Below, piece by piece: positions 9,507 to 32,875 of a stretch of 64,000 nucleotides of DNA. A program made the translations under genes and the position numbers. Origin of the DNA: Negaprion brevirostris (Eukaryota). The notes below the pieces were generated by a model. It did not search any database and was not told where the DNA came from. It saw nothing but the letters and a program-made list of their open reading frames with translations. The DNA lies in NCBI GenBank assembly GCA_030324005.1, contig JARDVH010000073.1, positions 56,226,870 through 56,290,869 of the forward strand, in the 5' to 3' direction. Each line of letters opens with the position of its first letter. Position 1 is the stretch's first letter.

Positions 9507-9699
9507 ATGATGTGGAGATGCCGGCGTTGGACTGGGGTAAACACAGTCAGAAGTCTCACAACACCAGGTTAAATTCCAACAGGTTTATTTGATAGTAAAC
9601 GCTTCGTCCTGATGAAGGAACAGCGTGTTCTGAAAGCTTGTGGCATTTGCTATCAAATAAACCTGTTGGACTTCAATCTGGTGTTGTGAGACTTCTTAC
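9507..9699. mobile_element. Short palindromic Penelope-type element, copy 1, nested in the hAT element
   Basis: ~54-bp inverted arms 9546-9599 / 9646-9699. The unique head atgatgtggagatgccggcgttggactggggtaaacacagt is the exact reverse complement of the end of copy 2 at ~32561-32601. Confidence 0.75.
9606..9643 (+). ncRNA. Minimal hammerhead-ribozyme-like motif
   Basis: CTGATGA (9609-9615), an extra A, stem II GGAACA-gcg-TGTTCT, GAAA (9632-9635), then GCTT. Stem I is poor in this copy. Confidence 0.5.
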
Positions 9700-30448: not shown

Positions 30449-31407
30449 GGGGGTGATTTTCCCACACCACCATGCTAATTTTCTAGCGCAGTATGGTTGG
30501 GAAAATCTTGTGTCTGGGTATGCGGGATTCGTGCATGCGTTCTCACCATGCTGGAAACCAATGGGAACACCTGTTAACTACTTTACATCTTATTTTAATG
30601 TGATTAGTGGTCCCGGGCCTGAATTCTCTGGACCCGCTAGCATCTCCCACCCCGCCAGGAGTATTTCAGTCCAGCGGGGTTCAGACCAGCTTCCCACTTT
30701 CGGGGAACTGGCAGTCTGACCTAACTGGAGTGAAGGGGGACAAACTGGGCCCCCTGGGGGTCAGACAATGGGGAGGGGGGGTTCTGTCCCCTGGGCATCC
30801 TAGCAGTGTCAGCCTGTGCGAAGGAGTGAGGTCTTTAGGGGATAGAGGTTGGTGCAATCAGTGGGGGTCCCGCTGCCACTCTGCATGGGTGTTGTGAGAT
30901 TTCTTNNNNNNNNNNNNNNNNNNNNNNNNNNNNNNNNNNNNNNNNNNNNNNNNNNNNNNNNNNNNNNNNNNNNNNNNNNNNNNNNNNNNNNNNNNNNNNN
31001 NNNNNGGGGTCCCGCTGCCACTCTGCATGGGTGTTGTGAGATTTCTTACTATGCATGGAGATTGATGGTGGCAGGAGGGAGGGCAGCGGTTGGGATGGGT
31101 GGGGTTTGGGATTGCTGGAGGGGGTGAATTTGTTTTGTAGGGGTGGGCTGGGAGGCTCTGTCGGAGGAGAGGGGGTGTTACTGGAGACCAGCACTGCGGG
31201 GATCCCGGGCTCGCCACGCGCAGAGGCCCACTGGTTTCAGCCTCTCTGGCGTGAATCAGCCCCACCCCCTGAAATATCATGCTGGTGGCTCTGCATTGCA
31301 CAGAGTATGGGTGATTCTTGTGCGAACTCCCACTGAAAGAAACAGTATGATTTACTCGTTTTCCCGTGAATTCAACACTCAAGAACATTTTTGGGAGAAT
31401 TCCACCC
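30449..31407. mobile_element. Non-autonomous Harbinger element
   Basis: TIRs GGGGGTGATTTTCCCA / TGGGAGAATTCCACCC and a perfect 3-bp TSD AAT (30446-30448, 31408-31410). Confidence 0.8.
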
Positions 31408-32009: not shown

Positions 32010-32875
32010 CACCAATGCCCTATACAGCTGCAGCAAGACCTCCCTACTTTTATATTCAATCCCCCTCGCTATGAAGGCCAGCATCCAAATACATAAAAAA
32101 GTCTTCCTGGGCTTTAGTAATCTGAAGAGTCTTAGTGAAACTCAATTTGGAGTACTGCGTACAATTTTGGCCACCATAGCCTAGAATGAATTTATGTGCC
32201 TGAGAGGAAGTACTACAAAGGTTCATCAGAGGGAGTCCTGGGATGATTGGATTGGCCTATGAAGAAAGATTGAGTAGATTAAGCCTATATTTCCCAGAGT
32301 TTAGAGGAATGATAGGGGATCTTATTAAAACAATTCTTATGAGGCTTCTGAGAGTAGATGCTGAGAAAATATCTTCCCTGGCTTGAGAGTCTAGAACGCC
32401 AGGCTGAAGTCCAACAAGTTTGATAGTTAAACCCACTAGCTTTCGGGGTCTGCTCCTTCATGAGGTGAGTGTCACCTGACAAAGGGGCAGACCCTGAAAG
32501 CTTGTGGGTTTACTATCAAATAAACTTGTTGAACTTTAACCTGGTGTTGCGAGATGACTTACTGTGTTTACCCCAGTCCAACGCCGGCATCTCCACATCA
32601 TGGGAGTCTAGAACACGGTAACAGAATAAGTTTAGAACTGAGATGAGCAGAAATCTCTTCTTTCAAATTATGTTTTGGGTTCTGTCTCACAGAGCCATGG
32701 ATGTTTAATTATTGAGCGTATTTAAGACAGAGGTATTTTGCACACTATATCCCAGAGATGTGGGGATACTGTGTGAAGACAAAGTTGAGCTCAAAGGTTA
32801 GCCATGATCTGTGAATGGCGAAACAGGCTTGAAGCTCTCAATAGCTTACTCCTGCTCCTGTTTCTTGTGTTATGA
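32010..32875. mobile_element. CR1 fragments (32010-32087 minus; ~32110-32875 plus, 3' end) interrupted by the palindromic element
   Basis: MLAFIARGIEYKSREVLLQLYRALV on minus; LEYCVQFWPP and RGDL.-type motifs plus a CR1 3' UTR on plus. Confidence 0.8.
32400..32601. mobile_element. Short palindromic Penelope-type element, copy 2, with two divergent hammerhead-like motifs
   Basis: Fold-back centred near 32470. Flanked by a ~15-bp duplication gagagtctagaacgc (32385-32399) / gggagtctagaacac (32602-32616). Motifs CAC-CTGACAA-AGGG..CCCT-GAAA-GCTT-GTG (+, 32473-32506) and CAC-CTCATGA-AGGAG..CCCC-GAAA-GCTA-GTG (-, 32434-32467). Confidence 0.78.

Follow-up and report, generated by a model that had tools for sequence, protein, structure and literature searches.

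A 5'-truncated head-to-head insertion of Penelope-like terminal repeats with decayed hammerheads in Negaprion brevirostris

In a 64,000-nucleotide stretch of Negaprion brevirostris DNA (contig JARDVH010000073.1, positions 56,226,870 to 56,290,869; hereafter the window), the insert at 32395-32603 is best explained as a 5'-truncated, head-to-head insertion of two terminal repeat (pLTR) ends from an abundant Penelope-like retrotransposon that probably bears an endonuclease, likely assembled on site from two separately primed cDNAs and not copied as a palindromic unit; we put the probability of this reading at roughly 0.88. The parentage of the insert, its duplicated target site, a tail that reaches an ORF ATG on one side only, junctions that vary between copies, and decayed hammerheads were observed directly, and from these we infer the mechanism.

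The insertion and its target site

An inverted-repeat search located a fold-back of 154 bp (32395-32548) inside the insert of ~208 bp, with arms at 32395-32471 and 32472-32548 that contain inverted-repeat segments of 41 nt at 85% and 27 nt at 85%. The folding z-score of the insert was -11.8 on the + strand and -11.1 on the - strand, and 0 of 200 shuffles equalled it on either strand. A preliminary description of this DNA, made from its letters alone, had called the insert nearly fully self-complementary; the fold-back is real (z ~-11), but only 154 of the ~208 bases pair, and the 55 nt at 32549-32603 are unpaired and present on one side of the fold-back only. The left arm (32395-32471, - strand) is an inverted, tail-less pLTR arm covering model positions ~331 to 416-422, and the tailed pLTR arm (32472-32603, + strand) covers model positions 334-468. 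The unpaired 3' part of the latter includes the Penelope-like element (PLE) 'tail' of ~35-40 nt, which starts at ~32566 and ends at the ORF ATG (32600-32602).

The insert is flanked on the + strand by a target-site duplication (TSD) of 11 bp exact (32387-32397 and 32604-32614), or 13/14 in an extended form (left copy 32384-32397), and the last 3 nt of the left copy overlap the arm end as microhomology. The flanking duplication of ~15 bp reported in the preliminary description is genuine but shorter. In uninterrupted paralogs of the host repeat the target site is present in single copy (6 shown, L367 being the clearest). The host itself (32130-32386, resuming after 32614, + strand) is a decayed LINE ORF2 C-terminal fragment, which 40 of 40 scored candidates matched at 68-82% identity with the self-match excluded; by one motif it is CR1-like, and the CR1 label is an assumption on that basis.

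A contig from an independent DNA run spans the left junction and the hairpin centre (32200-32505) with 0 differences, which rules out an assembly artefact. Contigs from a second organism code, ~5% diverged, span both outer junctions, and because contigs span its junctions the insertion is real and predates the split from the ~5%-diverged organism. The run contigs part ways beyond 32599-32603, i.e., at the tail end. A MITE was also considered and was ruled out by the asymmetric termini, the long and variable TSD, and a sequence that is the end of a reverse transcriptase (RT) element. The window also holds a second insertion of the same family at 9507-9699, whose tail lies on the - strand; in one of its arms the first box looks intact and stem II is of a longer subfamily type, and the other arm is truncated below the ribozyme. 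A short piece of the same pLTR end (31030-31053) adjoins an assembly gap.

The parent element and its abundance

A search of the shark's own genome (2.69 Gb) returned 3758 first-look candidates, and among the best 40, which were scored, 29 other loci matched nearly the whole insert at 80-93%. A 25-nt tail motif had 1645 exact matches in the genome and 0 in the reversed control; the exact motif was present in only 4 of 125 tails of other loci, and scaling by these counts gives, very roughly, 50,000 tail-bearing copies.

The tail continues through the ATG into the N-terminus of an ORF in most of 30 loci picked by that N-terminus, and following tail-anchored copies upstream led to a stop codon ~215 nt before the CTGA box. 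Translations of the sequence upstream of the pLTR in L043 and 29 further loci contain a linker Cys motif and a C-terminus that appears, by its motif, to be of GIY-YIG type. Long copies align with an 881-aa homolog over the RT and the C-terminus and terminate in this pLTR, and the closest protein relatives are shark proteins with RVT_1 at 75-78% identity (13 hits among 940 candidates). Since the tail leads through the ATG into the ORF and long copies carry the ORF upstream, the insert represents a terminal repeat that belongs to a coding Penelope-like element. Furthermore, the family contains pLTRs at both ends of the ORF, an inverted 5' copy, a one-sided tail and a TSD.

The Penelope link drawn in the preliminary description therefore holds. 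RT motifs are present in L119, where the Pfam RVT_1 match (E = 5.6e-5) lies below the cut-off; GIY-YIG-type motifs appear in translations, Pfam gave no GIY-YIG match for L110, and PF01541 was matched on one distant homolog. A PDB sequence search with the L110 ORF gave 0 hits. A CxxxxCxxC motif lies between RT and endonuclease (EN) in L110, L112, L128 and others, and this linker points to the Neptune or Nematis clade, to judge from the sequence; in the accessible part of PMC8557442, a Zn-finger-like Cys motif between RT and EN is a criterion for Neptune and is shared with Nematis. Pieces of the element ORF also occur in predicted shark host proteins (P0004, P0006, P0008 and P0010; NOXP20-like, septin 5a, XRCC5 and PPP1R12A-like isoforms), likely as gene-model read-through into repeats and possibly as exonisation. 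Separately, presumed-RNA contigs were aligned with the window and with L190 to look for an intron in the pLTR, and no GT-AG joint was present among the 15 joints listed, 72 more lying beyond the listing.

Minimal hammerheads in the copy and across the family

Both arms possess the parts of a hammerhead: stem I, a stem II of 4 bp preceded by an unpaired A, a palindromic and vestigial stem III, a box resembling CUGANGA, the GAAA, and a base at the cleavage site. The right-arm hammerhead, identified by sequence and alignment as minimal type I (32472-32508, + strand), has its box at 32476-32482 with G8>A at 32481 (CpG decay), a shortened stem I, and U as the cleavage-site base (32503). The left-arm hammerhead, identified likewise (32432-32471, - strand), has its box at 32464-32458 with G5>C at 32462, an A-C mismatch in stem II, and A as the cleavage-site base (32437). 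Neither arm keeps an intact core, in agreement with the earlier account of two hammerhead-like cores, one per strand, both substituted; that account judged the copy probably inactive, and with a core substitution in each arm the ribozyme is very likely dead here. In predictions, the isolated right arm misfolds and the isolated left arm folds weakly, and either hammerhead is predicted to be buried in a long hairpin in a read-through RNA. The two hammerheads lie on opposite strands and therefore do not dimerise in cis; dimer cleavage by a hammerhead was reportedly the subject of a 2017 RNA Biology paper.

Across the family, 570 matches were obtained with a pattern whose anchors lie outside the core; 100 of them were listed and 90 analysed, the 10 omitted being mostly longer-stem types plus one locus already included. 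Among the 90 copies analysed from the matches listed, the majority in every length class was CTGACGA-A-stem II-GAAA-GCT-(T/A); every core position was intact in the majority, 35 copies were wholly intact, and losses were concentrated at two CpGs. Within a length class, core positions were no better preserved than loop positions, as expected of copies that decay neutrally. An alignment of 48 of the 90 copies with the two window arms revealed stem II covariation: two pairs changed from G-C to A-U in 17 of 48 distinct rows, a level reached by 0 of 500 shuffles, and more compensated stem II types were found. Stem I is uninformative on covariation because it was fixed by the search anchors. The evidence for selection lies between subfamilies, where the core stays constant while stem II changes in compensated pairs, with few independent events.

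The preliminary description had proposed conservation of CTGANGA/GAAA, stem II covariation and an Rfam match as checks on the hammerhead; the first two came out positive, and on these sequence features the motif is a minimal type I hammerhead, as proposed. The third did not: at E<=10, neither the part of the window that was searched nor 5 intact-core loci matched any hammerhead family in Rfam, and the only matches were to miRNAs, under the gathering score and driven by the hairpin. The ribozyme appears to be a passenger in the 32395-32603 insertion and would be functional in source elements. In one subfamily, whose stem II is 14 nt long, 1234 exact intact-core matches were counted, and the cleavage-site base is T in 99 of the 100 listed. 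T is the least favourable base for hammerhead cleavage at this site.

Truncation, templates and relation to known elements

A tail-anchored sample was drawn from the first 100 listed tail matches, of which 24 with an assembly gap at the junction were dropped and 76 kept. The 5' ends of the tailed arms at these 76 gap-free loci formed a continuum from model position 1 to 441. An adjacent inverted arm was present at 42 of the 76, the two arm lengths varied independently, and two complete hammerheads were present at 3 of the 76, a lower bound because gapped loci may conceal longer palindromes. Inverted arms mostly ended at model 424-438, short of the tail, and the left arm of the 32395-32603 copy stops ~10 nt before this usual site. 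Over all loci, a TSD of 8-17 bp flanked 50 of 120 head-to-head pairs. At the centres of L032, L245 and L047, ~20-50 nt of extra non-element sequence lies between the arms, which suggests end-joining with filler DNA.

Among loci not picked by their tail, exactly one arm carried a tail in 36 of 43 pairs (21 expected, P = 4e-6); the exceptions to this one-tail rule include L003, L010, L338, L349 and L353, where each of the two arms has all or most of a tail. The 5' ends piled up at model 317-332 (28 of 66 gap-free loci; 2.8-3.2% per nt versus 0.7-1.0% upstream), a zone that lies immediately before the CTGA box and follows a TATA-like box by 17-32 nt. In the tail set, 12 ends fell within a pile-up interval (329-337) that was set after seeing the data, versus 10 in four-fold wider flanks. 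The ribozyme cut site was not enriched for 5' ends (4 versus 10, P = 0.30). The 32395-32603 copy contains two whole hammerheads because its arms start at model 331 and 334.

The preliminary description had read the insert as a non-autonomous, retrozyme-like mini-element, a ribozyme-bearing palindrome transcribed and mobilised as a unit by a Penelope RT. The 29 loci that match nearly the whole insert would fit such a unit, as would 5' ends that cluster near one place, so that many copies resemble each other, and pLTRs are able to act in trans according to the accessible part of PMC3846280. However, the 29 loci were chosen by likeness to the query, and the tail-anchored sample puts the two-hammerhead form at 3 of 76 loci. 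The centre junction is different in essentially every copy shown, arm lengths are independent of each other, and the hammerheads here form a head-to-head pair only, with no head-to-tail tandem monomers, the layout that defines retrozymes in the part of PMC7229834 available to us. Ends and junctions form a continuum, not a fixed unit propagating apart from the coding element, and the two-hammerhead palindrome arises when truncation falls close to a favoured stop zone. The mini-element reading is highly improbable for this insert and is largely refuted for the family.

The preferred reading, assembly on site from two separately primed cDNAs, would proceed as follows. The GIY-YIG endonuclease would cut both strands 11-14 bp apart, and each 3' end would prime reverse transcription inside the RNA, one near the ATG at the tail end and the other ~35-40 nt upstream. 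Both cDNAs would pass the uncleaved hammerhead and halt at its front edge, which is likely to be either the RNA 5' end, ~30 nt below the TATA-like box, or a point of RT drop-off, and the two cDNA ends would then be joined. In some insertions, possibly including the one at 32395-32603, the two cDNAs may have come from different templates.

The number of templates was approached through differences between arms. The cleavage-site base differed in 13 of 57 pairs, the 32395-32603 copy included, where 1.1 were expected from decay (P = 6e-11), and site 393 was discordant in 9 of 72 pairs (1.1 expected, P = 2e-6); the excess was less clear at sites 392 and 403, and discordance was at the decay level at sites 417 (1/92), 378 (3/58) and 391 (7/67). 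Among TSD-validated pairs, 6 of 18 were discordant at the cleavage-site base, again including the 32395-32603 copy. Switches at several sites were seen in five pairs: a TSD is visible only in L030 and partly in L245, L234 looks nested, L351 has a flank gap, and L278 shows no TSD. Arms of different subfamilies, with a different stem II or several downstream differences, were seen at L351:321-543, L278:1049-1605 and L030:1498-1732, with a TSD visible only in L030. These data hint that two templates, whether separate RNAs or both pLTRs in a single tandem transcript, are the best account of arm discordance; gene conversion could also be a source of arm differences.

A single template, copied either by the self-primed fold-back proposed in the accessible text of PMC3846280 or by two RTs copying one RNA in turn, with arm differences arising by later decay and gene conversion, is a minority possibility that we nevertheless take seriously. 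The arms are concordant at most diagnostic sites, site 417 being the extreme, so that one template per insertion fits most pairs; symmetric junctions exist (330/330, 321/321, 375/375), and the one-tail rule suggests coordination on one complex. Decay alone, however, does not explain the excess at the two transversion sites, which persists at the cleavage-site base in TSD-validated pairs, and many junctions are strongly asymmetric (e.g., 333/383 and 430/335). It is very unlikely that the A/T mismatch at the cleavage-site base reflects RT error at a cleaved and religated junction of a circular RNA template. Discordance does peak precisely at the nucleotide predicted to be cleaved, and both A and T are present in several stem II classes, but the subfamily with the 14-nt stem II has T almost throughout its listed copies, A is tied to one downstream haplotype (26 A/CTTG, 2 A/CTGG, 24 T/CTGG), further sites are discordant too, and ends are not piled up at the cut site. 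A more speculative form of the two-template idea, which we consider rather doubtful, is that head-to-head Penelope insertions derive from two RNAs: an RT-endonuclease dimer would hold two transcripts starting at the ribozyme front edge, one would be primed per cut strand at different start sites, and the run-off cDNAs would be joined, with the palindromic AGCU of stem III as an RNA-RNA pairing signal that unites the templates. The 32395-32603 copy, whose arms carry A versus U at the cleavage-site base, would be one such product.

The layout itself, inverted pLTRs with a tail and opposite-strand pairs of hammerheads, is already published, and the 32395-32603 insert is a truncated insertion, probably of an EN+ PLE, that carries minimal hammerheads. 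As far as PMC8557442 and PMC3846280 (Pen2a_Av) could be consulted, complex insertions of EN+ PLEs consist of an inverted 5'-truncated pLTR, a one-sided tail of 30-40 bp and a TSD; the shark insertion shares the head-to-head pLTR ends, the single-sided tail, a TSD of ~10 bp and a pLTR/tail reaching the ORF start. It differs in that the stub keeps no ORF, both arms stop at the ribozyme front edge (208 bp), and the family has tens of thousands of copies. The accessible text of PMC4209133 (2014) describes dual minimal hammerheads that lie on opposite strands at spacings of 100-700 bp and are associated with truncated PLEs, and the present motifs resemble these in CUGANGA, the unpaired A before stem II, the G-C closing pair, GAAA, the vestigial palindromic stem III, the short stem I and covarying families; here, however, the two motifs are almost adjacent and both are mutated. 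That text contains no shark example, and its supplements may have one.

In the portion available of PMC11167929 (Frangieh 2024), Poseidon of Anolis carolinensis (PAc) was studied in vitro: both strands were cut and extended, two internal start sites bracketed the tail, and ribozyme cleavage was not needed. The shark copies point to the same features, namely two internal RT start sites around the tail, cutting and extension of both strands, and an uncleaved RNA template. The PAc ORF begins at stem II and encloses the tail, whereas the ATG of the shark element follows the cut site by ~100 nt, where the tail ends, and its protein has a Cys linker motif like that of Neptune/Nematis. Animal non-LTR retrozymes, as described in the parts of PMC7229834 and bioRxiv 10.64898/2026.07.22.740005 that were accessible, are likewise non-coding and pLTR-related, with a type I hammerhead and a long TSD; they consist of head-to-tail tandem repeats with canonical motifs and circular RNAs, whereas the arrangement here is head-to-head, the motifs are minimal, and the sequence is that of a coding element's end. 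A title and abstract search, whose scope left most subscription journals and Repbase/Dfam outside, found no paper on a shark Penelope hammerhead or on twin priming in Penelope. The ribozyme of this shark family was not found described in the texts consulted, and the supplements of PMC4209133 and of bioRxiv 2026.07.22.740005, which includes one chondrichthyan, may contain it.

How PLEs form inverted ends is stated as an open question in the accessible part of PMC8557442. With roughly tens of thousands of relatives, the insert at 32395-32603 is a single dead stub that is of value as one entry in a large natural data set. If the two-RNA proposal were true, stem III would resemble a retroviral dimer-initiation site and would give a poorly cleaving ribozyme a job. 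Altogether, the one-tail rule, the front-edge stop zone and the disagreement between arms make the one-template and two-template models directly testable in the Anolis in vitro system.
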